A stretch of DNA of 64,000 nucleotides from assembly GCA_965205425.1 (NCBI GenBank), contig CBDBGZ010000009.1:544001-608000 (forward strand). The letters are read 5' to 3'. Shown here piece by piece: positions 42,373 through 56,046 of the stretch. The stretch comes from Nitrosopumilus sp. (GTDB taxonomy: Archaea > Thermoproteota > Nitrososphaeria > Nitrososphaerales > Nitrosopumilaceae). The position numbers and the translations under genes are program-made. Position 1 is the first letter of the stretch. Every line of letters begins with the position of its first letter. The notes under the pieces are model-generated. The model made no database searches. It was not told where the DNA came from and was given only the letters and a program-made list of their open reading frames with translations.

Positions 42373-42423
42373 AATGGTATCTAAAAGTAGACCTAAAAAT
42401 TGGTTCTTATAAGAATTGAAAAA

Positions 42424-42497
42424 TGCAGTCAGCGGGATTCGAACCCGCGTCACAGGGTTGGAAACCCCGAATACTAACCAGGCTATACTATGACTGC
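42424..42497 (-). tRNA. tRNA-Gly(TCC), intronless, CCA not encoded
   Basis: Acceptor stem GCAGTCA/TGACTGC, anticodon arm CGGGG-TTTCCAA-CCCTG, T loop GGTTCGAATCC. Confidence 0.97.
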
Positions 42498-42716
42498 AAT
42501 AGAATGCAAATTTTATTTCCTACATAAAAATTTTGTACTGTTACAGAAAATTCAAATTCATCTAGATAATATTGTTGTATAAAATTGATATAATAATTTG
42601 ATAATTGTATCACGTATTTATTAGATTCCTAGATTGTATTAAGTCTTTTTTCTAGTCTTGTTTGTATTACAATATTTTTTCTTCTATTCATACAAAACAA
42701 TCACCAACGAAAATAA

Positions 42717-43016: not shown

Positions 43017-43685
43017 TTATGTATCTGTTTGTAAGATTTGTTTTTGTATTGTGTCTTGTTTTTCTTTCTCTTTTTCTCTCCTTTTCATATCTCGTTTCTT
43101 CATAATATTTTTTATCGTTACACCAAGCATACCTGCTCCTCCAAATATTTTTTTGATTTTTGGATCATTGATTTTATCACCCAATAACAGCTTCAAAGAA
43201 GCAACAAGATCTTTTTCTTCACTTTCTGTCAATTCTTCATTGTCTGGAAACATTATAGATATTAACGAATTTACAACTCTTGCTATGCTGGAATAATCTT
43301 CTTCATTTGTACTAGTTTCTGATAGTTTGATGGTTTTAGGTATGGTTACAATAGAACCAGATGTATTTTCAGATGGCTCACAAACTAGTTTAGATGATTT
43401 ATCGTTTATTGTTACTGGCTTTGTGTCCACTTTGATATCTAATGTATTACTGTATCTTTTTGCCTGTCTTTGTGGAAAAAATTCATTCATATCCATGCCA
43501 TCTTTTTTGACTAGTTTTTTTAGTTCTCGATTGAAGATTGAAGCCACACTAGCACGATTTTTTTCTTGTTCCTGTGCTATTTTCTCAATATGATTAGCTT
43601 TTTCTCTAGGATTTACAAGATGGTTTAGATCATCAATATTTGATAAATAATCTCGGATTATATCAGTTAGAGATTCATTTTTCAT
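43017..43685 (-). CDS. Hypothetical protein (element cargo)
   Basis: 222-aa ORF with no recognised motif. Confidence 0.7.
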   Translation of the reverse strand: MKNESLTDIIRDYLSNIDDLNHLVNPREKANHIEKIAQEQEKNRASVASIFNRELKKLVKKDGMDMNEFFPQRQAKRYSNTLDIKVDTKPVTINDKSSKLVCEPSENTSGSIVTIPKTIKLSETSTNEEDYSSIARVVNSLISIMFPDNEELTESEEKDLVASLKLLLGDKINDPKIKKIFGGAGMLGVTIKNIMKKRDMKRREKEKEKQDTIQKQILQTDT

Positions 43686-43777: not shown

Positions 43778-44452
43778 ATGGAACATGAATTAACAGCATT
43801 TGAGAAAAAGATATTGGATTTTCTCAAAGGTCATTATAACCAACAATTTGCCATTGGAAAACAAACAAAGACTGAAACCAAAAGACTATCCAAAGCAAAA
43901 AACGACATCATATCCAAAATGACAAGTTCTATGAATGCATTTATGATATTATCTGAGATAATTAGAATATCTAACACAACATCAGATAGAATATCTGAAA
44001 ATTCAAATAGATACATCAGGCAAAACTTTTCAAATTTACCTGATAGTATCATCAAATCTACATTGAGCTTTGATCTTGTAGGTGAAGAATATACTCTACA
44101 ACATTTTAAGAACATACAAAGAAACCTTGCACAAGATGTCTTTAGCTTGGATAAAGTACAAAATCTCCTAGATGCCATCTTTGTATTTCATCCACAGGGG
44201 ATATCTTCACAATCTATTGGAAGAGATGTTACATACAAAAACACGATAGATGTCAATGATGACCAATACAGGGATTCTCATAAAAAATACTATAGAGATT
44301 TGGCAGGGTTGTTAGTAGAATCTGGAATTAGTCAGATAAAAAAGAACCTTCATCCAGAAAAAGATAAAATGCTAATCAATAATCTAGATTTTACTGTAAA
44401 TATTATTAGAAAATTAGACTATCATGTAGAGAAAATTGAGAAAAAAAGATAG
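43778..44452 (+). CDS. Hypothetical protein (element cargo)
   Basis: 224-aa ORF with no recognised motif. Confidence 0.7.
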   Translation: MEHELTAFEKKILDFLKGHYNQQFAIGKQTKTETKRLSKAKNDIISKMTSSMNAFMILSEIIRISNTTSDRISENSNRYIRQNFSNLPDSIIKSTLSFDLVGEEYTLQHFKNIQRNLAQDVFSLDKVQNLLDAIFVFHPQGISSQSIGRDVTYKNTIDVNDDQYRDSHKKYYRDLAGLLVESGISQIKKNLHPEKDKMLINNLDFTVNIIRKLDYHVEKIEKKR

Positions 44453-44571: not shown

Positions 44572-45504
44572 CTATTGGATTTCATTTTTATGCATTATCT
44601 TTTTGAATTCTTCAAACATCTCATCTATAGTTGGAGTAAAATAAACTCCGTCAAGGCCATTTTTGTGTCCTAGCAGTTTTTCAGCAATATTATAATTTAT
44701 TGAATTGTCAAGCTTGAGAATAGTGTTGAATCGTTTTCTAAATCCATGATCTATTTGTACATCATAACGATTATCTTGCTTGCATTTTCTTATGTTACTT
44801 TTTGATACTGCCCTATACACAACACTTCTGCTGCCGCTCCATCCAAGCTGTTTCATAGTTTTTCCTATTGTAAAAATCGGAGCATTACTGTCAAATATTT
44901 TGTTGCTTTTTCTGCGTTGATCATGATATGTATCTAATAATCTTGATGCTTGTGGAGTGAGAAATGCCCAGTATTCTTCTATGTGTCCTGCATACAACAA
45001 TATTGCATAACAACCACATGGCATTTTTTTCATATGTCTAATAGCTAATGGATGATCAAAGACTCCTATTCTTGCTCCAGTTGATGCAAGAAAATGAATC
45101 AATGCTTTGTCTCTAATGTTTTTTGTATTGTACAGTATCTCTTTGATTTCATTTGTTGTATATGCCCTCAAGCTAGGTGTCTTTTGTTTTTGTGGAAACA
45201 TCTTGTATATTATGTTCCAATTAAGATTGATTCTATTCATCACAAAAAAATGCTTTATTCCTCTAAACTTTGATGGTATGGAATTTGGGTTTGCAGTATG
45301 TTTCAAGTATAAAATATAATTTTCCAACATAACCTGCAAATCATTTGTGGGAAATTCTAACCATTGATTCTCATCATGTATACCAGTAAATTTTTTGAAT
45401 TGATTAAGATGCGATATATAATTTTGCTTAGTATATTTTGATCGTATAGATTCCTCAAATAAGATCATGCTTCTTTGTGATATATTTTTGATCAAGTACC
45501 ACAT
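44572..45504 (-). CDS. Tyrosine recombinase (internal; candidate invertase)
   Basis: STGARIG, HGFRKRF, LLGH and GVY give a complete R-H-R-H-Y set. Confidence 0.92.
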   Translation of the reverse strand: MWYLIKNISQRSMILFEESIRSKYTKQNYISHLNQFKKFTGIHDENQWLEFPTNDLQVMLENYILYLKHTANPNSIPSKFRGIKHFFVMNRINLNWNIIYKMFPQKQKTPSLRAYTTNEIKEILYNTKNIRDKALIHFLASTGARIGVFDHPLAIRHMKKMPCGCYAILLYAGHIEEYWAFLTPQASRLLDTYHDQRRKSNKIFDSNAPIFTIGKTMKQLGWSGSRSVVYRAVSKSNIRKCKQDNRYDVQIDHGFRKRFNTILKLDNSINYNIAEKLLGHKNGLDGVYFTPTIDEMFEEFKKIMHKNEIQ

Positions 45505-45552: not shown

Positions 45553-45790
45553 TCATGTTATCAATTTATTTTCATAATCATCAACAAACTTTTCTCTAGA
45601 TATCTCGACATCAGATAGTATTCCATGTTGAGTTCCAACTGGTAGTAATCTATTTCCAGCTGGCACAGTTGTAAACACTGTTTTGTTTCTTAATGTTGCA
45701 TGACTTCCTTTTCGTCTGGTAATGGCAAACCCTTTTCGCTGCAGATATCTTATCATTTGATTTCCAGATACCTTTTGGTATCTTTGACAT
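45553..45790 (-). pseudogene. hicA: HicA family toxin with a +1 frameshift near codon 6
   Basis: GF...RRKGSH..L, TVP and GT..GIL motifs; ATG 45790 overlaps the hicB stop (TAATG) but is 1 nt out of frame. Confidence 0.82.
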
Positions 45791-46002
45791 TATTGCTCTA
45801 TTATGAGCATGTTAAAGTCCGTTGGACTTTCACACTCTTCGGCTGCAAGATCCACTGCCTCTTTCATGTTTTCCATTATCTCTCCAAATGTATCGCCTTC
45901 TGAGTTTGCATGTAGTTCATCACATCTTCCAACAAATCCCCCGCCCTCAAGATCTTTGGTTATGATAACTGTGTATGTCTTTTTTTGTAGGGTTGTACTC
46001 AT
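45790..46002 (-). CDS. hicB: HicB family antitoxin (short form)
   Basis: Y.VII..D..GGFVG.C.EL...SEGDT..E..ENMKEAV. Confidence 0.9.
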   Translation of the reverse strand: MSTTLQKKTYTVIITKDLEGGGFVGRCDELHANSEGDTFGEIMENMKEAVDLAAEECESPTDFNMLIIEQ

Positions 46003-46352
46003 GTTATTTGTAATCTAGAAAGTGTTAAAAATATTGCTAGTCTTATGCATTTTTTTATGGTAATACATATCCTACAACAAGAATTTGGTGTTCAACTCCA
46101 AAGAAAATAGCTGAAAAAGATGATTTGTTGTTATCAGTACGTGCTCCTGTAGGTTCTACAAACTTAAGCTCTGAACAATGTTGTATAGGTAGAGGATTAG
46201 CTGCAATCAGACCTATGGATAAAAATATGAATGTAATATTTTTCTTTCATTTTTTTAGACACATTGAACATCATTTGGAAAGTTTAGGAACAGGAACTAC
46301 ATTCAAAGCAATTTCAGGTAAACAAATAAGAGAATTATCTATAACTTTACCT

Positions 46353-46625
46353 CCACTAAACGAACAAAAACGCATCGTCTCAAAAATTGAATCAATCTTC
46401 ACACAGATTGATGCAGCAAAGATACAGCTTGAGATGTTATCATCGCAGGTCAAGTCATCTTCTAGTAGCTTGAATATGTTGAAGAACAGCGTGCTAAAGC
46501 AAGCCTTTGAAGGTAAGCTTGTTCCACAGGATCCAAATGACGAATCAGCAGAAGTCTTGTTGAAGAAAATTCATGGCGATTCAAAGGAATTGAAATTTAA
46601 GAAAGAGAATCTTCCAAAAGGATGG
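46353..46625. repeat. 273-bp perfect inverted repeat, left arm (partner 52895-53167)
   Basis: Base-by-base reverse-complement match by eye. Confidence 0.95.
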
Positions 46626-47069
46626 GTAAAAACAAAGATAGAATTGATTTGTGATCTCATAGGTGGTGGCACTCCTTCAAGGAAAAATTTAGAATATTTT
46701 AAAGATGGTCAAATAATTTGGTTAACACCAACTGAAATCAATAAAGAGAAAATATTAAAAATTAATTCTTCTAAAGAAAATATTACAGAATTAGGATTAA
46801 CAAAAAGTTCCGCTAAATTAATACCTAGAAATGCAGTTTTATTAACATCTAGAGCTAGTATAGGATATGTTGCAATAGCAGAAACAACAGTTACAACAAA
46901 TCAAGGATTTGCTTCATTCATATGCTCTAAAATTATCCATAATTATTTTTTAGCTTATTGGTTAAAGAGTAATAAAAATGTCTTAGAAGAACATGCAACA
47001 GGAACAACATTTAAGGAAATTCCCAAATCTGTGATCAAAAAACTATCTATTGAAATTCCACCATTTTCT

Positions 47070-47124
47070 GAACAAAAACGCATCGTCTCAAAAATTGAAT
47101 CAATCTTTGATAAGATTGATGCAA
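47070..47124. repeat. 55-bp perfect inverted repeat, left arm (partner 52402-52456)
   Basis: GAACAAAAACGC...GATTGATGCAA matches the reverse complement of 52402-52456. Confidence 0.95.
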
Positions 47125-47349
47125 AACAAAAAGAGATTGCAATCTTAGAATCCAAATTAAAAAATATACCTGATAGCATAAATGCCATAAAAAGCAGTAT
47201 TTTGAAGCAAGCTTTTGAGGGAAAATTAGTTCCACAAGATCCAAATGATGAACCCGCATCAATTCTATTAGAAAAAATAAAATCTCAAAAATGCAGATCA
47301 TAAATATAATTACTACTGAAATAATTGATGGTAATTTTTGAATAAATAA

Positions 47350-48828
47350 TTATTTTGGAATTTCTTTAGATATGATATTCTTTACATCCTCAAACGCTTT
47401 GATTATATCTTTTCTTATACTGATGAATGAATCTATCAATTCATCTGGTGGCAGTACAATTGTTTCTGTCACATCGTTTGGATTATTGGAATCAAGATTA
47501 TAATCTTGAATATCTTTGATATTTACTTTCCATGCATTTTTATTTGTCTTTTTATTTTTAAACCATTTTTCAATCTCTGAAAAATCCTCATATGCAATTG
47601 GATTTGATTTAGTATATTTTGGATTTTTTGCACGGGTGACTCCTCTTAATCGCTCATTTACATGCATCTGATAATACCATATTTCTTTGGTAGGAGTGGT
47701 TTTATCAAAAAATAAAATATTTGTGGCAATTGTTGTATATGGTTCGAAAACGGTTCTAGGAAGTCTAATTATTGTATGCAAGTTAAATTCTTCAATTAAT
47801 TTTTTCTTGATCTTGGCAGCCATTCCTCCTGCAAACATTGGACCATCTGGAAGAATAATCCCACAACGCCCTCCATCTTTTAATGAATACATGATATACA
47901 ACAAAAATGCAAGTGCAGTGTCTGATGTTTGAAAACCAACAGGCAAATTAGATGATATTCCTTCTTCTTCTTCTCCACCAAATGGAGGATTTGTGATGAT
48001 GATATCATATTGATTGTTTACAGATATTTCTCTTAATGGTTTAGCTAGTGTATTAGTTCTGATAATGTTTGGTTTGTCAAGTTCATGTAATAATGAATTC
48101 ATCATCCCCAATAGATATGGCATTGGTTTTTTCTCAATTCCAAATAATGTCTTGGTTGTTAATTTTTTCAAGTCATGTTTTGTCTTTTGTTCATTTCTTA
48201 GAAATTCTAGAGATTCTATCAAAAATCCTCCTGTGCCACATGCAGGATCCAATATTTTTTCAGATTTTTTGAGACTTGGGTTAATTTGATTGACAATAAA
48301 TCTAATCACAGGTCTTGGTGTATAAAATTCGCCATTAGAACCAGCAGCATCTCTCATTTCTACTAACATATCTTCATAGAGTTTTGCCATTGTGTGAATA
48401 TCATCAGTATTTACAAAATTTACTTTGTCTATCAGATTTAGAATTTGTCTAAGAACATATCCACTTAATATCCTGTTGTTTAATTCTTTAAAGATTGATG
48501 CAAGTACATCTCTTTGTTCAAAACCCTCTCCTCCTACCAATTTTGCAAGTTTAGGAAATAATTCATTATTGACAAAAGAAATTAGATCAGGGCCTGTCAA
48601 AGATTTACTTTTATCTTCAGCCCAATCTCTCCATTGTAATCCTTTGGGAATTGCCTCGACATATTTTTTATTCAATGCTGTTCTTTCTTTTTCAAAATCA
48701 TCAAAACTCTTTAAAAATAAAATCCATGCAATTTGAGGGATTCTATCGACATCCGTATTAAGACCTGCATCTTTTCTCATTAGATCTCTTGCAGATTTTA
48801 TTATAGAACGAAGTGTTTGTGCATCCAT
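47350..48828 (-). CDS. hsdM: Type I R-M N6-adenine methyltransferase
   Basis: GEFYTPR, DPACGTGGF and NPPF motifs. Confidence 0.96.
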   Translation of the reverse strand: MDAQTLRSIIKSARDLMRKDAGLNTDVDRIPQIAWILFLKSFDDFEKERTALNKKYVEAIPKGLQWRDWAEDKSKSLTGPDLISFVNNELFPKLAKLVGGEGFEQRDVLASIFKELNNRILSGYVLRQILNLIDKVNFVNTDDIHTMAKLYEDMLVEMRDAAGSNGEFYTPRPVIRFIVNQINPSLKKSEKILDPACGTGGFLIESLEFLRNEQKTKHDLKKLTTKTLFGIEKKPMPYLLGMMNSLLHELDKPNIIRTNTLAKPLREISVNNQYDIIITNPPFGGEEEEGISSNLPVGFQTSDTALAFLLYIMYSLKDGGRCGIILPDGPMFAGGMAAKIKKKLIEEFNLHTIIRLPRTVFEPYTTIATNILFFDKTTPTKEIWYYQMHVNERLRGVTRAKNPKYTKSNPIAYEDFSEIEKWFKNKKTNKNAWKVNIKDIQDYNLDSNNPNDVTETIVLPPDELIDSFISIRKDIIKAFEDVKNIISKEIPK

Positions 48829-48862
48829 TAGTGATATTTCCTATATCCTCATTAAATATGAT

Positions 48863-51229
48863 TCAATTATTCAAGTACAATTCTTTTGTTAATTGTACTA
48901 TGGCATCATCATATTGATCACCATCTTTGAATCTATCATTAATAATTTCTACTGGACCTCCAAACTGTTTGAATTGTGGCAATTTCAAAATATCTCTTTC
49001 TTCTAATTCTTGATATCCATGATCAGCATAATGATCTAAAATTATCTCAAGAACTTCTCGTGCCTTATCTGGATATTTCTCCAAAAAGGGTTTTTTACGC
49101 ACAGAATTTACTCTTTCTAAACGAGTTTTTGCATCTGCATTAAATGCAAAATGAAGTAACAAATCAAATGCATCTGCTTTAAACATCTGTGTAATTTCTC
49201 TTAGATGTTCAAAATTTATTCCTCTAGTTTTTAATTTTTCGACAAAATGTTTTCGATTTTCAGGATTCGTCCAAAGTTTGTATAGTTCTGTTTGATCATC
49301 ATTAATCAAACGACGTACAGTCTCTTTTGTATAATTCTGATAAGTAATTAATCTGTTACCATCTATTGATTGATCAAATATCAATACAGATTCACCTATA
49401 ATCTTAACTTCATGTCCTTCAATATGATAAGTTTCAATATTTGTTGGATCTCTGGATGTAGAGGATATTCCTTCTTCTATCTTCCTTCTTTCTTCTTCCA
49501 TTCTCTTTTTTACTTTTTCCTTCATCCTGTCTTCTTTTTCTCTGGTAATTCTTTCTTGACCTTCATCTGTTTCAGCAGCAGGTGGACCATCCCATTCTAC
49601 ATCTTCAAATAATCGAGTTGTTTTCCTATAATCTATAATAGAAAACCACATCTTGTCCTTCGGTTCATACACACGTGTGCCACGTCCTATTATCTGTTTA
49701 AATTCGGTCATAGAGTTAATGCTTTTATCTAATGCAATTATTTTACATGTAGGTACATCTACACCAGTAGACATCAATCTAGATGTTACTGCAACAACTG
49801 GAAAATCTCTATTAGGTTCTTGAAAATGATCTAAATGTTCACGACCTATTTCTCCTTCAGCAGAGACTATTCTAACACAATAATCATGTTTTTCTCCAGA
49901 ATAATTTCTGATCAATTTAGTCATTTCAAGTGCATGTTCAGAATTCTGGCAAAATAGAATTGTTTTATTATATTTTTGATTATTTTTTTCTAAAAAGTTT
50001 ACCAGATGCATTGCAACTGCTTTTCGTCTTTCATTTACTCTTAAAATTCTGTCAAAATCTTTGTATGTATACAATCTATCTTCCAATATTTTTCCATCAA
50101 GATCTTTTTCACCTGGTTTTGGTTTGTATCCTTGTATATCAATTTCAAGATTTACTCTATGAATCATGTATGGTGCTAAAAAGCCATCCTCAATTCCTTG
50201 TTTAAGGCTGTACGTGTATACAGGTGTGCCAAAATAATCATAGGTGTCTTTGCTTTCATCATTTCGTTTAGGTGTTGCAGTCATACCTATGTGGATTGCA
50301 TTAGAAAAATGATCCAGTATCTTCCTCCAATTCCCAGATTCATTTGAGCTTCCACGATGACATTCATCTATTATAACATAATCAAAAAAATCTGTTGGAT
50401 ATTGTTTGTATAATTCACCGTTTTCTTTTTCTACATCAAGTGCTTGATATAATGCAAAATACATTCCAAATGCAGTTTGTACAACTCTTTGGATTTTATG
50501 TCTTGCTTCACCAAAATTTGCAAATGCATTATTTCTTGCTTGATCCAATAAAATAGTTCTATCTGCTAAAAATAAGATTTTTGGATGTGGTTTATCTTTA
50601 TTCCATAATTTTTGTGCAATTTGATAAGCAATGAAGGTCTTGCCTGTTCCTGTTGCAAGATTCAACAAAATTCGTTTCTTTCCTGCAAAGATTGATGTTA
50701 ATGCTGCATTGATTGCAATTTCTTGATAATATCTTGGTTCCATAGGTGACCCACCAGGATCTTTTGAGCTTCTATCTAATGGTTCCAACAGAACATTCAT
50801 TTGTTTTTCATCAAAATTCTTATGTCCGTTATATCTTTTTTGTAACTCTTCGGGTGTTGGGAATTTATCAATTGTTCTTTGTTGTTTTGTTGTAACATCA
50901 TATTCTTCAATTTTTTGTCCATTAGTTGCATATGCAAATTGTAGGTTTAGTTTTTCTGCATATATCAAAGCTTGTTGCATTCCTTCATCATGAGGTTTAT
51001 CCCATGCCTTTGCTTCGATCACTGCAATTTTAAAATCAAGTCCTAGTTTTAAAATATAATCTGCTTTATTTGGATCATTCCGTTTTCCTGTACGACCCTC
51101 TGGAATGATTTTTCCTTTATTAATATAATATTCACGAACGATTTTATCTAATTCCCATCCAGAATCTTTCAATTTTGGATCAATAAAACGCATACAAGTA
51201 GTTGATTCTGAAATCTTTTCGTTGCTCAA
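48863..51229 (-). CDS. hsdR: Type I restriction subunit R (EcoAI/type IB-like)
   Basis: ADY...IEAK nuclease; ATGTGKT, DECH, TATP and QIIGRGTR helicase motifs; 788 aa. Confidence 0.95.
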   Translation of the reverse strand: MSNEKISESTTCMRFIDPKLKDSGWELDKIVREYYINKGKIIPEGRTGKRNDPNKADYILKLGLDFKIAVIEAKAWDKPHDEGMQQALIYAEKLNLQFAYATNGQKIEEYDVTTKQQRTIDKFPTPEELQKRYNGHKNFDEKQMNVLLEPLDRSSKDPGGSPMEPRYYQEIAINAALTSIFAGKKRILLNLATGTGKTFIAYQIAQKLWNKDKPHPKILFLADRTILLDQARNNAFANFGEARHKIQRVVQTAFGMYFALYQALDVEKENGELYKQYPTDFFDYVIIDECHRGSSNESGNWRKILDHFSNAIHIGMTATPKRNDESKDTYDYFGTPVYTYSLKQGIEDGFLAPYMIHRVNLEIDIQGYKPKPGEKDLDGKILEDRLYTYKDFDRILRVNERRKAVAMHLVNFLEKNNQKYNKTILFCQNSEHALEMTKLIRNYSGEKHDYCVRIVSAEGEIGREHLDHFQEPNRDFPVVAVTSRLMSTGVDVPTCKIIALDKSINSMTEFKQIIGRGTRVYEPKDKMWFSIIDYRKTTRLFEDVEWDGPPAAETDEGQERITREKEDRMKEKVKKRMEEERRKIEEGISSTSRDPTNIETYHIEGHEVKIIGESVLIFDQSIDGNRLITYQNYTKETVRRLINDDQTELYKLWTNPENRKHFVEKLKTRGINFEHLREITQMFKADAFDLLLHFAFNADAKTRLERVNSVRKKPFLEKYPDKAREVLEIILDHYADHGYQELEERDILKLPQFKQFGGPVEIINDRFKDGDQYDDAIVQLTKELYLNN

Positions 51230-51344
51230 TTTATACTCCTAATTTTTAGATTTATGATGGTTATAAAATAAATCATTATTAATACAACATATTTGTGACA
51301 TCCTAAAAATATTTTAGATGATTTAATGAAAAATATAATATAAA

Positions 51345-52274
51345 TCAAATATTATGTCCATAAATTTGAGAAAATGAATGATATGTTTTATGGCCTTGTA
51401 GAAACCATGATAAAATAACAAAATCTAATTTTCTAATCCTGTAAGCATTGTATGCAATTAACCTGTACAACATCTCATTGTCCTGAGTTGTAACATTTCT
51501 TGATGTGACATCTCCTGACATTATCTGTTTGATCACAAAAAAGATTGTTTCAGATTTGTTTCTCTGATGGTACAATTGTACAGGAAAGTTCCTCTTCATC
51601 TCCTTTCTGTGAATTCCGCTGGTTCTGTAAATTGGAACTGTTCCATATCGAGTTGGAATTATTGCAGCTGTGTTGATCTGTTCTGCACCAACATGGTTAT
51701 TCTCATCATCAAAACCCATGTCACCTAACACAATATCAACTGGAACAATATTGTTGGTTTTGTACAACAATGGCAGAAAATCAGGATTATCATGTTGCAT
51801 GTTGTGGTGTGTCATGACACAGCAAACAAGCTGTGTATTCATGTCAGCACAAACAACAACTTTTAGGAAATTCCTGCGTAACTGTACTCTTTTTGTATAA
51901 TAGTATGATGCTGTACTGTAACTGAATCCGCTACCATCAATTCCAGCTAGAACCAGTCTGACTTTTTTGTACAAAATGAATTCCTGCAACATTTTATGTA
52001 ACAGATTTCCTTCCAGTCTTGCAGCTGCCTTTTGTAGTGTGGTGTAATGTGGAATGGTATACAAACCAAGATATTCCTGAATTCCTACACATTCTTCTAA
52101 AAATTCTGTAAATCTTCTATAACTCTTTGATTCGTACTGTCGTATTGTCAAGAGTATGAGATGTGTCCAAACAGAATAGATATGATTTGATTTTGGATGT
52201 AAGAACCTAGGAATTCTGCATCTGGTGATTATATTGAGTAGTGTTTTGCACATTTTGACGTATGATGAGACCAT
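51345..52274 (-). CDS. IS5-family DDE transposase
   Basis: IDGSG, GDMGFD and YHQR..SET.F..IK motifs; reads through the TIR to an external stop. Confidence 0.92.
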   Translation of the reverse strand: MVSSYVKMCKTLLNIITRCRIPRFLHPKSNHIYSVWTHLILLTIRQYESKSYRRFTEFLEECVGIQEYLGLYTIPHYTTLQKAAARLEGNLLHKMLQEFILYKKVRLVLAGIDGSGFSYSTASYYYTKRVQLRRNFLKVVVCADMNTQLVCCVMTHHNMQHDNPDFLPLLYKTNNIVPVDIVLGDMGFDDENNHVGAEQINTAAIIPTRYGTVPIYRTSGIHRKEMKRNFPVQLYHQRNKSETIFFVIKQIMSGDVTSRNVTTQDNEMLYRLIAYNAYRIRKLDFVILSWFLQGHKTYHSFSQIYGHNI

Positions 52275-52362
52275 ACTGTAATCTGCAAATACAATCCTAA
52301 TGGATCTAAATTAGCTAAAATGTATCACAATTGGGTTAAAATCAGATGGTTTCTACAAGGCC
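51392..52362 (-). mobile_element. IS5-family insertion sequence (971 bp)
   Basis: Perfect 17-bp TIR GGCCTTGTAGAAACCAT (51392-51408 and 52346-52362); 9-bp TSD ATGTTTTAT (51383-51391 and 52363-52371). Confidence 0.95.
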
Positions 52363-53629
52363 ATGTTTTATAAATTATTTTATCTCTCATAGATACTATA
52401 CTTGCATCAATCTTATCAAAGATTGATTCAATTTTTGAGACGATGCGTTTTTGTTCGTTTAGTGGTGGAAGTGGAACCACTACTTGTTTTATTTTTTCTT
52501 GGCTAATGTTTTTTTGAGCTCCTCCAAAACCAATTCTTATCAAATCATTTCTTATTGATTTTAAAAATAAAAATAAATATGAATTGCTTATTATTTTTTG
52601 ATTATTAAATATTGCACATATTGCTTGATTAGTTGATGCGGGAAAACCAAGAATTGATAATTTGCCTATAGTAGCTCCATACATTGCCATTAAAATGGTA
52701 TTTTTAGGATGAAGCACAGCATTGGATTTTTCTAGACCCAATTGACTAATTCTTTCTTCACACTCTAAGATTATAGAATCATTTAACTCTCCTGATTTGA
52801 TCCACGGCACATCTCCTTCAAAATAATTTGAATTCTTTCGTGATGGTGTACCCCCACTTTTTGTTGTACAAATCTCATCAATAGTTGTTTTAATCCATCC
52901 TTTTGGAAGATTCTCTTTCTTAAATTTCAATTCCTTTGAATCGCCATGAATTTTCTTCAACAAGACTTCTGCTGATTCGTCATTTGGATCCTGTGGAACA
53001 AGCTTACCTTCAAAGGCTTGCTTTAGCACGCTGTTCTTCAACATATTCAAGCTACTAGAAGATGACTTGACCTGCGATGATAACATCTCAAGCTGTATCT
53101 TTGCTGCATCAATCTGTGTGAAGATTGATTCAATTTTTGAGACGATGCGTTTTTGTTCGTTTAGTGGTGGAAGTGGAACCACTACTTGTTTTATTTTTTC
53201 TTGGCTAATGTTTTTTTGAGCTCCTCCAAAACCAATTCTTATCAAATCATTTCTTATTGATTTTAAAAATAAAAATAAATATGAATTGCTTATTATTTTT
53301 TGATTATTAAATATTGCACATATTGCTTGATTAGTTGATGCGGGAAAACCAAGAATTGATAATTTGCCTATAGTAGCTCCATACATTGCCATTAAAATGG
53401 TATTTTTAGGATGAAGCACAGCATTGGATTTTTCTAGACCCAATTGACTAATTCTTTCTTCACACTCTAAGATTATAGAATCATTTAACTCTCCTGATTT
53501 GATCCACGGCACATCTCCTTCAAAATAATTTGAATTCTTTCGTGATGGTGTACCCCCACTTTTTGTTGTACAAATCTCATCAATAGTTGTTTTAATCCAT
53601 CCTTTTGGAAGATTCTCTTTCATATCCAT
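52325..53629 (-). CDS. hsdS: Type I R-M specificity gene hsdS2: start codon, TRD-A, central region, identical TRD-A; C-terminal conserved region missing
   Basis: MDMKENLPKGW start; HsdS similarity stops at KIDA (52402). Confidence 0.9.
   Translation of the reverse strand: MDMKENLPKGWIKTTIDEICTTKSGGTPSRKNSNYFEGDVPWIKSGELNDSIILECEERISQLGLEKSNAVLHPKNTILMAMYGATIGKLSILGFPASTNQAICAIFNNQKIISNSYLFLFLKSIRNDLIRIGFGGAQKNISQEKIKQVVVPLPPLNEQKRIVSKIESIFTQIDAAKIQLEMLSSQVKSSSSSLNMLKNSVLKQAFEGKLVPQDPNDESAEVLLKKIHGDSKELKFKKENLPKGWIKTTIDEICTTKSGGTPSRKNSNYFEGDVPWIKSGELNDSIILECEERISQLGLEKSNAVLHPKNTILMAMYGATIGKLSILGFPASTNQAICAIFNNQKIISNSYLFLFLKSIRNDLIRIGFGGAQKNISQEKIKQVVVPLPPLNEQKRIVSKIESIFDKIDASIVSMRDKIIYKTWPCRNHLILTQL
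52419..53621. repeat. 501-bp perfect direct repeat (52419-52919 = 53121-53621)
   Basis: Offset 702 bp; identical translation of both TRDs. Confidence 0.95.
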
Positions 53630-53690
53630 GCTTCCAGAGTCATAATTTCTATTTTTACCTAAATCATTCAATATTAACTGTGTAACAACT

Positions 53691-53837
53691 ATTAAAGAAC
53701 AAAAGCAAATTGTATCAATCCTGTCTGGAGTTGATGCATACATTCAGAAAAACCAAGAATATAAGGAAAAGCTGGAGATTCTAAAAAAAGGACTTATGCA
53801 AAAATTGCTAACTGGAAAGATCCGCGTAAAGGTATGA
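53691..53837 (+). pseudogene. hsdS: Orphan 3' end of a third, different-subfamily hsdS
   Basis: Translates IKEQKQIVSILSGVDAYIQKNQEYKEKLEILKKGLMQKLLTGKIRVKV*. Confidence 0.85.
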
Positions 53838-54381: not shown

Positions 54382-55341
54382 CTAATTGCTGATTTTTTCA
54401 TTTATCAGCAAATCAGATTCAAATTCAATATATTTTTTCAACTTTTCATCTAATGTCAATCTATCATACACTAACAAATCTCTTGCCTGCTCTTGTCCTG
54501 CAAAATATTTTGCTAGATTTGGATCATGTCTTGATACTTTGGTTATAAAAAATGCCCTAAAACTGTGAGTTGTTATCTTGTGACGACCTGATTCATATTT
54601 TTGATCGAGGTTAATTCGTTTAAGATATTTGGTTAATATCAACTGATAATGATTACTAACATTTGTAGGCTTTGTCTTGCCACGGAAAAATACATAGTTC
54701 TCATCATTCAATCTTTTCAGAATTGGTTTTAGCAAAGGTGTAACCTCTTTGCTAAAAAAAGTCACTCTTGATTTCTTTGTTTTAGTTATGCTGGCAGGAA
54801 CATTTACTATTATCCTCTCCTGCGTAGTATCTAGATCTATTTTTCGTAACTGCAACAATTCTCCTCTTCTTAATCCACTGGATAGTTGTGCTAGGATTTT
54901 CAATCTATTTTTATTGTTACTCACCTCCAATATTCTTCTAATCTCTTCTTTTACTAGGGGATATTTTTCCTCATTAACTTGATGTGGAAAGTTTAGCTCA
55001 TCTGCTACATCTTCTTTTGTGATTTTTATATTATGATATCTGAGATATTTTTTCATATATGAAAAAACTGTAGGGATACTGTTTGGATAGATTCTCTTGT
55101 TATTCCAGTTGAGCCATTCTTGCAAGGATTCATAGACTGTTTCCATCTCGACTTTTTGATATTCTGTTATGGTCTCATCAATTGTTTTACCATATTTTTC
55201 CTTGCAAAATATCTCAAAATTCTTTATTGCTGATCTTATAGAATTTTGTGTACTTGTTGCTTTTGTTTGTATCATTTCCTCAAAACTCTTGCGATCTTTG
55301 GACTTTCGTAGAAAGGTAGACATTTTATTAATATCTACCAT
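54382..55341 (-). CDS. Tyrosine integrase of the element
   Basis: SGLRRGE, KT, HSFR, FAGQ and VY motifs; starts 36 bp from the att repeat. Confidence 0.93.
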   Translation of the reverse strand: MVDINKMSTFLRKSKDRKSFEEMIQTKATSTQNSIRSAIKNFEIFCKEKYGKTIDETITEYQKVEMETVYESLQEWLNWNNKRIYPNSIPTVFSYMKKYLRYHNIKITKEDVADELNFPHQVNEEKYPLVKEEIRRILEVSNNKNRLKILAQLSSGLRRGELLQLRKIDLDTTQERIIVNVPASITKTKKSRVTFFSKEVTPLLKPILKRLNDENYVFFRGKTKPTNVSNHYQLILTKYLKRINLDQKYESGRHKITTHSFRAFFITKVSRHDPNLAKYFAGQEQARDLLVYDRLTLDEKLKKYIEFESDLLINEKISN

Positions 55342-55377
55342 AATACCTTAAAAAGATGCCTAAAACGATTGATTTAC

Positions 55378-56046
55378 CTACATAAAAATGGTTTTTTCGT
55401 ACTCATATAGCATTCTAGCTACTACAACATGTCCTTCAAATGGTTTATCATCAACTGAATAAAGATCTGAAATTTTATTTTGAATTGAATCAGAAAAATG
55501 TCCTTTTTGGAATCCTCCAATTACAATACAAGCATCATCCTCAACCTCTCCTGCAATTTTTTCATATGAAGATCTGTTACCTTTTGTAGAAAAACCAATC
55601 ACTTTTGATGGTTTTATTTCATCAAGTAATTCAGAAAATGTTTTATCTTCAATTTTTAATAAAATATCATCATTTGTTTTTATTTGTTTTTCTTTATACA
55701 ACTTTTCTATAACTCCCTCAAATCTATGATATGATTTAGGAATGTGAACATTTTCACTAAAAGAAATTACTTTGTCATCAAGAGTATGAACGTAAAGTTT
55801 CATTTTATTTGTAAGATATAATGGAATTGTTGTAGCTTCAAGAATTGAAAAATGTACAAGATCCGGTCGACCTCTTTTCATTTCATTTTCAATTCCTTTC
55901 ATAGCTGCAAAATGCCAAGAATTATCTAGTAAAATTTCTGACGAGTGTTTGCCAAGTTTTCTTGCATGTGAGATAACTGATGGATGATGTATTAATTCAG
56001 AAGGAATAAGTTCTAATGAAGATTCAGATAATATTAAAGAAATCAT
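55378..56046 (-). CDS. nep1: rRNA small subunit pseudouridine methyltransferase Nep1
   Basis: ES.LE..P, ILLD.S.H, RGRPDLVH, P.SY.RF.G and IGGFQKGHF motifs. Confidence 0.93.
   Translation of the reverse strand: MISLILSESSLELIPSELIHHPSVISHARKLGKHSSEILLDNSWHFAAMKGIENEMKRGRPDLVHFSILEATTIPLYLTNKMKLYVHTLDDKVISFSENVHIPKSYHRFEGVIEKLYKEKQIKTNDDILLKIEDKTFSELLDEIKPSKVIGFSTKGNRSSYEKIAGEVEDDACIVIGGFQKGHFSDSIQNKISDLYSVDDKPFEGHVVVARMLYEYEKTIFM

Follow-up and report, generated by a model that had tools for sequence, protein, structure and literature searches.

Programmed inversion of hsdS, the specificity gene of type I restriction-modification (R-M) systems, is well studied in host-associated bacteria; for archaea, we found only untested listings. 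In the hsd loci of Mycoplasma pulmonis, opposed hsdS genes are placed around hsdR and hsdM, the recombination sites lie at the 5′ end and inside the genes, and the expression of hsdR and hsdM depends on orientation. The inversions, catalyzed by the tyrosine recombinase HvsR, yield new specificities or a loss of activity (PMC4948785). In the pneumococcal loci, silent copies donate 5′ and 3′ target recognition domains (TRDs) to one expressed gene, through repeats located before TRD1 and between the TRDs (PMC7394358). The supplements of Huang 2020 (PMC7672463) and Atack 2020 (PMC7394358) include archaeal multi-hsdS loci, among them four from Euryarchaeota with an invertase and one from N. maritimus SCM1, the latter with a single 39-bp repeat at the 5′ end, no invertase, and no dyad site of the kind described below in the printed repeat. 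Here we analyze an hsd locus in a 64,000-nucleotide stretch of a Nitrosopumilus sp. genome (assembly GCA_965205425.1, contig CBDBGZ010000009.1, positions 544,001 to 608,000; hereafter the window). Judging from sequence comparisons, we estimate at roughly two in three the probability that it switches by site-specific inversion at nested pairs of dyad sites, probably through the neighboring tyrosine recombinase gene int1.

An earlier note on this DNA had described two opposed hsdS genes around hsdR and hsdM, one with a start and no C-terminus and the other the reverse, together with five perfect inverted repeats, and we confirmed both points (genes are listed in Table 1). On the minus strand, hsdS2, an insertion sequence (IS) of the IS5 family, hsdR and hsdM follow one another, and hsdS1 comes next on the plus strand; hsdR, hsdM and hsdS are all present with intact motifs, as expected of a type I R-M system. 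hsdS2 starts at ATG 53629 or 53623 and encodes TRD A, the central region, an identical TRD A and then 25 unrelated residues, the HsdS homology ending right after 52402. hsdS1 has a complete C-terminus and an open frame from 46041 without ATG, the only start codon of its own being an internal TTG at 46125; its first TRD is ~55 N-terminal residues short compared with the closest full relative (83% identical), and the nearest solved relative of its product is 1YF2. The five inverted pairs are free of mismatches, maximal and not extendable: 273 bp (46353-46625/52895-53167), 55 bp (47070-47124/52402-52456), 47 bp (46353-46399/52419-52465), 38 bp (47070-47107/53121-53158) and 25 bp (46601-46625/53597-53621). 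Two direct repeats are equally exact (501 bp, 52419-52919/53121-53621; 38 bp, 46362/47070). The note did not mention the IS5 copy inside the segment, the two flanking tyrosine recombinase genes, the third hsdS remnant or the dyad sites.

How would the inversion points be targeted? A 30-bp dyad site, TTGAATCAATC-N8-GATTGATGCAR (11-8-11), is found within conserved helix codons of each hsdS. Genome-wide (2.2 Mb) it occurs six times, five times in the locus and once in an hsdS remnant on contig C5, and the four copies in the two hsdS genes make up two nested, core-matched inverted pairs, one central and one 3′. In tyrosine recombinase chemistry, only core-matched site pairs should recombine well. 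The 47- and 38-bp repeats stop two bases into the 8-bp core, where the central and 3′ cores differ, and the 25-bp pair contains no dyad site. As only the central/central and 3′/3′ pairs are matched, four states are predicted, without half-size or A-A-C forms. The proposal that all five repeats act as switch points is thus not sustained, and the A-A-C, half-size A and half-size C variants that it entailed would need ordinary homologous recombination. The more general idea of an invertible archaeal hsdS locus remains probable, with a tyrosine recombinase and a layout that recurs in relatives.

In the mechanism that we propose, the candidate invertase Int1 would act on core-matched sites and turn around the segment that they enclose. 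At the central pair, this would swap TRD2 together with the tail (the C-terminal helix); at the 3′ pair, only the tail would be swapped and hsdR-hsdM flipped. The gene with the start would then cycle between A-A tail-less (the assembled state, 432 aa when counted from the second ATG), A-A tailed (466 aa), A-C tailed (468 aa) and A-C tail-less (434 aa). Contrary to the expectation that every variant carries the proper C-terminus, two of the four site-specific states join the tail-less end to the gene with the start. For forms with a tail, one can expect from PMC3874165 that they would methylate and restrict a bipartite site, palindromic for A/A and asymmetric for A/C; those lacking it would probably have no activity, or else dimerize as A/A. 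Upstream of hsdR, the flipped unit contains an AT-rich stretch that includes a TATA-like word. hsdR-hsdM thus likely keep their own promoter within this unit, and may be expressed whichever way it lies. A sigma-70 promoter scan found 36 promoters where 43.8 were expected, but this bacterial model is not meaningful for archaea.

The evidence for flipping comes from relatives. When we simulated the inversions of L008, the locus of one of them, the 3′ flip, the central flip and both together gave exactly the public proteins P0121, P0026 and P0015, respectively. P0019 and P0127 correspond to the assembled state, so that proteins of all four predicted states exist. The three alternative proteins are encoded on separate European Nucleotide Archive (ENA) contigs of 5.5, 16 and 111 kb, and inverted hsdS alleles often land on separate small contigs (Huang 2020, PMC7672463). 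Furthermore, P0124 and P0126 share 409 identical residues before their tails switch at the dyad site, and P0012 corresponds to the first half of P0014 followed by the second half of P0129, as in a central-swap product. These comparisons concern the matches listed by the protein searches (in the first search, 120 of 2903). Since the simulated flips of L008 match independent public proteins, we consider it very probable that the family inverts.

This family is spread across the genus, as a search in relatives suggested by the earlier note has now shown. PF01420 matches were found in 45 of 151 Nitrosopumilus genomes, and the 40 regions examined around them contain 25 opposed-hsdS loci, including the window, the remaining regions overlapping or having single or co-oriented genes. 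At least one opposed site pair with identical inner six bases is present in 17 of the 25 loci (14 genomes), the cores differing between central and 3′ pairs and from locus to locus. With 9 to 10 of 11 dyad positions paired, and cores matched within pairs in these 17 loci, the sites look like tyrosine recombinase crossover sites. An 11-6-11 geometry was replaced by 11-8-11 with the inner six matched, as the outer core bases differ in L012, L018 and L022. Exactly one true tail is kept in each of the 17 loci, the other hsdS turning to unrelated sequence at the 3′ site or a few codons past it. TRD1 looks intact in both genes except in the window, in L028 (a one-TRD partner) and in L019 (one copy frameshifted). 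The site-bearing genomes are kin, so the counts are not independent, and short-read assemblies break at these repeats, which means that the family is probably under-counted. An HsdM search of 61 relatives gave distant matches only (5/61, including this genome).

Is int1 the enzyme? A gene of its clade (61-76% identity, support 100/99) is found in 16 of the 17 site loci (one cut by a contig end), and in none of the eight opposed loci without sites or of the four co-oriented pairs checked. By the definition of Huang 2020, an epigenetic inverton has at least two hsdS genes with inverted repeats, which this locus has, and an invertase homologue, for which int1 is the candidate. The definition further asks for both orientations in a population; the contigs of this strain would be the same either way, and for L008 all four predicted states are represented by proteins. 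One could instead suppose that the inversions are due to homologous recombination or to another recombinase (Int2 or the host XerA), the dyad being a by-product of the helix codons and Int1 a passenger integrase. The peptide does account for much of the dyad, int1 homologues are found without hsdS, TRDs are exchanged between positions 1 and 2, a movement beyond the reach of site-specific inversion by itself, and five opposed loci (L009, L010, L011, L026 and L027) have shared repeats without a site. However, the tail-less ends begin at the site or a few codons past it in 17 of 17 loci, the 3′ shared repeats measure just ~20-56 bp in most loci, and int2 is absent from most site loci; together with the distribution of int1, this makes the alternative quite improbable. 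The five site-less loci, with inverted repeats of 22-110 bp and no int1, possibly represent a second, different switch type in the genus.

A second, slower process shifts TRDs from one position to another and also across species. TRD1 of L019, a locus of genome G153, matches TRD C at 99% identity, and TRD A is duplicated in the window. Between the window and L019, identity reaches 99.3% in the inner unit, as against ~90% for ordinary or flanking genes, and the near-identity stops with the 3′ repeats. In another case, the HsdS proteins P0002 and P0009 have the same two TRDs in reversed order, with near-duplicate helices.

Record titles place the family in Nitrosopumilus. Of 53 motif loci across GTDB species genomes, 48 have titles naming this genus or its close kin, and the 11 Nitrosopumilus-type loci checked separately all lie inside hsdS or its fragments. 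Of five bacterial-titled matches, four are outside hsdS and look like chance; the fifth (L096) is an hsdS site at the end of a short contig titled Sneathiellales bacterium, through mis-binning or transfer. In metagenome contigs the exact 3′ site had no match and the loose motif five, two of them within hsdS; viral contigs gave none. The same DNA motif is encoded in two HsdS protein types (ESIF..IDA and ASIL..VDA). In the arms of 43 unique sites, Ser is TCA in 43, one Ile is ATC in 42 and another is ATT in 43, where the genome usage of these codons is 0.38, 0.17 and 0.58.

Several observations weigh against inversion through int1 and the dyad sites in this strain. Synonymous recoding gives on average 5.1-7.5 of 11 dyad pairs (P 0.01-0.12 per site), so that the peptide itself favors a dyad and the dyad alone is weak evidence. 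The Ile codon just outside the site is also ATC in 39 of 43 cases; the fixed codons and matched cores are partly due to shared descent and repeat homogenization. Among 16 further int1-like places, six have a site nearby and ten have none in the region examined. The alternative proteins, seen as protein only on ENA contigs, may be assembler joins or come from strains fixed in other states. Assembler error could explain joins at the 186-bp central repeat, but is harder to invoke for the 38-bp 3′ repeat. In this strain no flip was seen among the assembled contigs; repeats of at least 31 bp yield identical contigs in either orientation, so its contigs carry no orientation information, and neither an A-C nor an A-A-tail protein of this strain was among the matches listed in the protein searches.

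Two more of these points concern the OFF state. The predicted HsdS2 structure has two confident TRDs, a 51-residue central helix and a shorter second helix, and the model extends this helix into the foreign tail, with confidence falling from 85 to 45. Moreover, truncated S subunits of EcoR124I and EcoDXXI function as homodimers: a Tn5 insertion in the C-terminal TRD of EcoDXXI and the EcoR124I delta-50 mutant are both active (PMC3874165). The tail-less HsdS2, which retains the full central helix, might thus dimerize through it and recognize an A/A palindrome, in which case the locus would switch specificity only, with no OFF state. We hold this to be possible, if doubtful. Methylation was absent with truncated pneumococcal hsdS alleles, and activity is lost in some of the M. 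pulmonis rearrangements (PMC4948785); that all 17 site loci have retained exactly one tail also suggests that it matters. A switch without OFF state is compatible with inversion at the dyad sites in all but the OFF step.

Mis-assembly at the 273- and 501-bp repeats, a danger raised by the earlier note itself, is extremely improbable and already largely refuted. The assembly does consist of nine contigs with 5.2% contamination, and the source runs hold several strains. The sequencing data are assembled contigs in all ten listed runs; our comparison covered four of the six runs holding the locus plus the replicate X4, X3 and X4 being two runs of one sample, with X1 (share 0.06) set aside and the third run, X2, being a strain mixture of uneven depth. 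Single-copy parts have a depth of 737-835 in X3 and 1087-1145 in X4, against 1600 and 2200 for the shared central repeat, and TRD A bins reach ~1800 in X3. This doubling shows that the duplications are real. Contigs also contain the B, A, C and tail-less junctions, and other genomes share the layout, among them G153 (L019), where it stands on a single-contig chromosome. The TRD C contig begins at 46596 in 3/3 runs, which argues against a common start-C junction at the 25-bp repeat.

Other contigs of these runs deserve mention. One in X3 and X4 carries another hsdS 3′ end, with the 38-bp repeat and 46506-46544 (depth 636/1188, and 70 in X2); it is missing from the assembly of this genome (G000) and belongs to another strain or an unassembled locus. 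Two low-depth contigs, one of 573 bp (13-15x) and the other of 513 bp (3x and 14.7x), hold unknown TRDs between the same flanking repeats, and a 56-bp contig of the 55-bp repeat differs at two letters (19.5x, 37x); they probably stem from minor strains with the same cassette borders. In X2, a second path enters the hsdS1 tail at 47196, and hsdM-hsdR has a depth of 343 compared with 173 just upstream, which suggests a strain with the same hsdRM and a different hsdS.

Could the locus descend from an invertible system and now be frozen, or nearly so, its expressed hsdS locked without a tail and the partner gene in decay? hsdS1 is 5′-deleted to ~60 bp from the start of the hicB-like gene. The outer partner site has been lost: the orphan site 53710-53739 has its inverted partner in L019 and none in the window. 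An IS5 copy was inserted 30 bp from the 3′ site in an IS-rich genome, and the lack of flipped products among the listed proteins would also fit. We nevertheless find freezing unlikely. int1, hsdR and hsdM are open, with their catalytic motifs, none of the four inner sites is damaged and their cores match within pairs, an AT-rich stretch still stands upstream, before hicB, and TRD1-less proteins recur in another allele family (P0122, P0123 and P0125). For a locus still inverting at its dyad sites, the deletion of the hsdS1 start would mean fewer outputs than in relatives whose hsdS genes both keep their N-termini. L019 itself has three nested site pairs, the outer of which, a leftover of the second HsdS type, would invert the hsdS-R-M-S block in its entirety.

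L019 lacks the IS5 copy at the equivalent place. The genome holds ~30 near-identical copies, complete or partial, pointing to a recent expansion. We rejected this IS as the cause of the hsdS2 truncation, since L019, where no IS stands, has the same foreign tail, with the first 13 codons shared.

The hsd genes are carried by a 12.9-kb island between tRNA-Gly and the EMG1 gene (Table 1). The 13-bp att-like repeat has only two copies in the genome, and an X3 contig links a tRNA-upstream-like sequence to 55377, as expected of an empty site. Int2 is likely the island integrase; an integrase with flanking direct repeats is what characterizes thaumarchaeal integrated elements. int1 lies downstream of the hicB-like and hicA genes, which stand next to hsdS1. 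Its product has no sequence match in the PDB, and its look-alikes are generic integrases only. The small gene upstream of hicA, which we take to be HicB-like from its position, has no Pfam or NCBIfam match.

Table 1. Positions in the window of the hsd locus, its dyad sites and the surrounding island genes (aa, amino acids)
Feature	Position	Strand	Remarks
Left att-like 13-bp direct repeat	42519..42531	.	just upstream of tRNA-Gly(TCC) 42423-42498
int1, tyrosine recombinase, candidate invertase	44572..45504	-	PF00589; R..HxxR..GH..Y motifs
hicA-like toxin gene	45553..45756	-	PF07927, E 3.7e-7
Small gene upstream of hicA	45790..46002	-	HicB-like by position; homologues beside int1 in many loci
hsdS1	46059..47303	+	5′-truncated TRD B (to 46352), central region 46353-46625, TRD C 46626-47069, full C-terminal helix
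Central dyad site of hsdS1	46387..46416	+	11-8-11, core TTCACACA
3′ dyad site of hsdS1	47095..47124	+	core TTTGATAA; last base is the end of the 55-bp repeat
hsdM, 492 aa	47350..48828	-	PF02384, PF12161; DPACGTGGF and NPPF motifs
hsdR, 788 aa	48863..51229	-	EcoAI/FtnUII family, NF046051 above cut-off; nuclease and helicase motifs
IS5-family element	51392..52362	-	NF033579; 9-bp target duplication 51383-51391/52363-52371
Non-HsdS tail of hsdS2	52325..52401	-	after the 3′ site; in contigs of 3/3 runs
hsdS2	52325..53629	-	start, TRD A 53168-53596, central region 52895-53167, TRD A 52466-52894; C-terminal helix absent
3′ dyad site of hsdS2	52402..52431	-	core TTTGATAA; partner of 47095
Central dyad site of hsdS2	53104..53133	-	core TTCACACA; partner of 46387
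3′ remnant of second HsdS type	53646..53837	+	carries orphan dyad site 53710-53739, core CTGTCTGG
int2, different tyrosine recombinase	54382..55341	-	PF00589; separate clade; beside the right att repeat
Right att-like 13-bp direct repeat	55377..55389	.	

Two divergent open reading frames (ORFs) of the island, 43017-43685 and 43778-44452 (222 and 224 aa), have no Pfam or NCBIfam match, the second accompanying hsd islands (C5, L019). On C5, a related island in decay occupies positions 116000-120800 of this G000 contig (L039): half an hsdS gene with a core of the same orphan type is accompanied there by fragments of hsdM and of an integrase, by a copy of IS5 and by an ORF homologous to 43778-44452. 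L113 (G163) has a more remote homologue of int1 (54%), whose neighbors are the genes for a PLD-SNF2 helicase and for a 1202-aa methylase of the Eco57I type.

From the tail-less site to the start of the hicB-like gene downstream, the distance is 77-88 bp in five loci, which suggests that the dyad site may have begun as an att site belonging to a small element made of hicB, hicA and int1. An extra hicB/hicA-like pair apparently precedes the recombinase operon in L019. We tentatively propose, as a scenario on the doubtful side, that a Nitrosopumilus-specific hicB-hicA-recombinase module was domesticated into a tail-swap switch, in which both hsdS genes would be made and only the tail holder would work, the site also moving TRD cassettes and hsdR-hsdM units between species. 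If true, it would constitute an integron-like platform for the exchange and switching of restriction specificity in marine ammonia oxidizers.

More generally, if the locus switches, clonal populations of a major nitrifier group would hold mixed methylomes and mixed virus barriers, and a recombinase with several orthogonal cores could be a useful tool. The family offers a named candidate enzyme, a defined 30-bp site, exact allele predictions and matching public proteins in a relative, and archaeal phase variation thereby becomes directly testable.

The note knew of no characterized archaeal example. Even so, the case is less new than it implied: multi-hsdS loci, including one from Nitrosopumilus, had already been listed (Huang 2020, Atack 2020). 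These appear to be listings without tests, and their tables have no thaumarchaeal invertase clade. hsdS is a common cargo of thaumarchaeal elements (Krupovic 2019, PMC6563490), and the inversion-related wording in the excerpts of that paper concerns other repeats. A 2024 review of archaeal R-M makes no mention of inversion or phase variation, and a 2026 review, excerpts of Milman 2023 and an Asgard element paper added nothing on archaeal hsdS switching. Our search, whose coverage ended short of subscription papers and bioRxiv supplements, found no characterized archaeal hsdS switch. Under the scenario of a domesticated module, and within the literature searched, the present case would be the first in which hsdS phase variation in archaea comes with known alternative alleles.

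How, then, does the locus compare with known systems? Opposed hsdS genes flank hsdR-hsdM here as in M. pulmonis. The sites, however, are central and 3′ here, and one C-terminal helix is common to both genes. HvsR is encoded away from its target loci (PMC7672463), whereas int1 is adjacent. With the pneumococcal SpnD39III and Spn556II loci (cod, ivr; PsrA/CreX) it shares a tyrosine recombinase at the locus, inverted repeats in hsdS and combinatorial TRD exchange (PMC4948785, PMC7394358). Unlike them, it has no 5′ site in hsdS and no 5′ exchange repeat, the 25-bp repeat being site-less and the 5′ end of hsdS1 missing; hsdR-hsdM lies inside the inverted unit, and in most relatives both N-termini are present, while the gene to which the tail belongs varies. 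Archaeal XerA/dif and integrase att sites have similar 11-bp dyad arms around a short core (11-6-11 for dif) and rely on tyrosine recombinase chemistry (PMC8371274). The present sites differ in standing within coding sequence, with several core variants per locus, and the XerA model NF040815 gave scores of 51 and 63 bits against a cut-off of 220, that of Int1, 51, being far below it. In Helicobacter pylori hsdS, a given TRD can likewise stand first or second, bordered by short flanks common to both positions, but that movement is an evolutionary exchange and not a recombinase-driven inversion. In conclusion, the locus would function like the hsdS invertons of M. pulmonis and the pneumococcus, yet it departs from the defining feature of each, from the former in the position of its recombinase and from the latter in having no 5′ exchange repeat.

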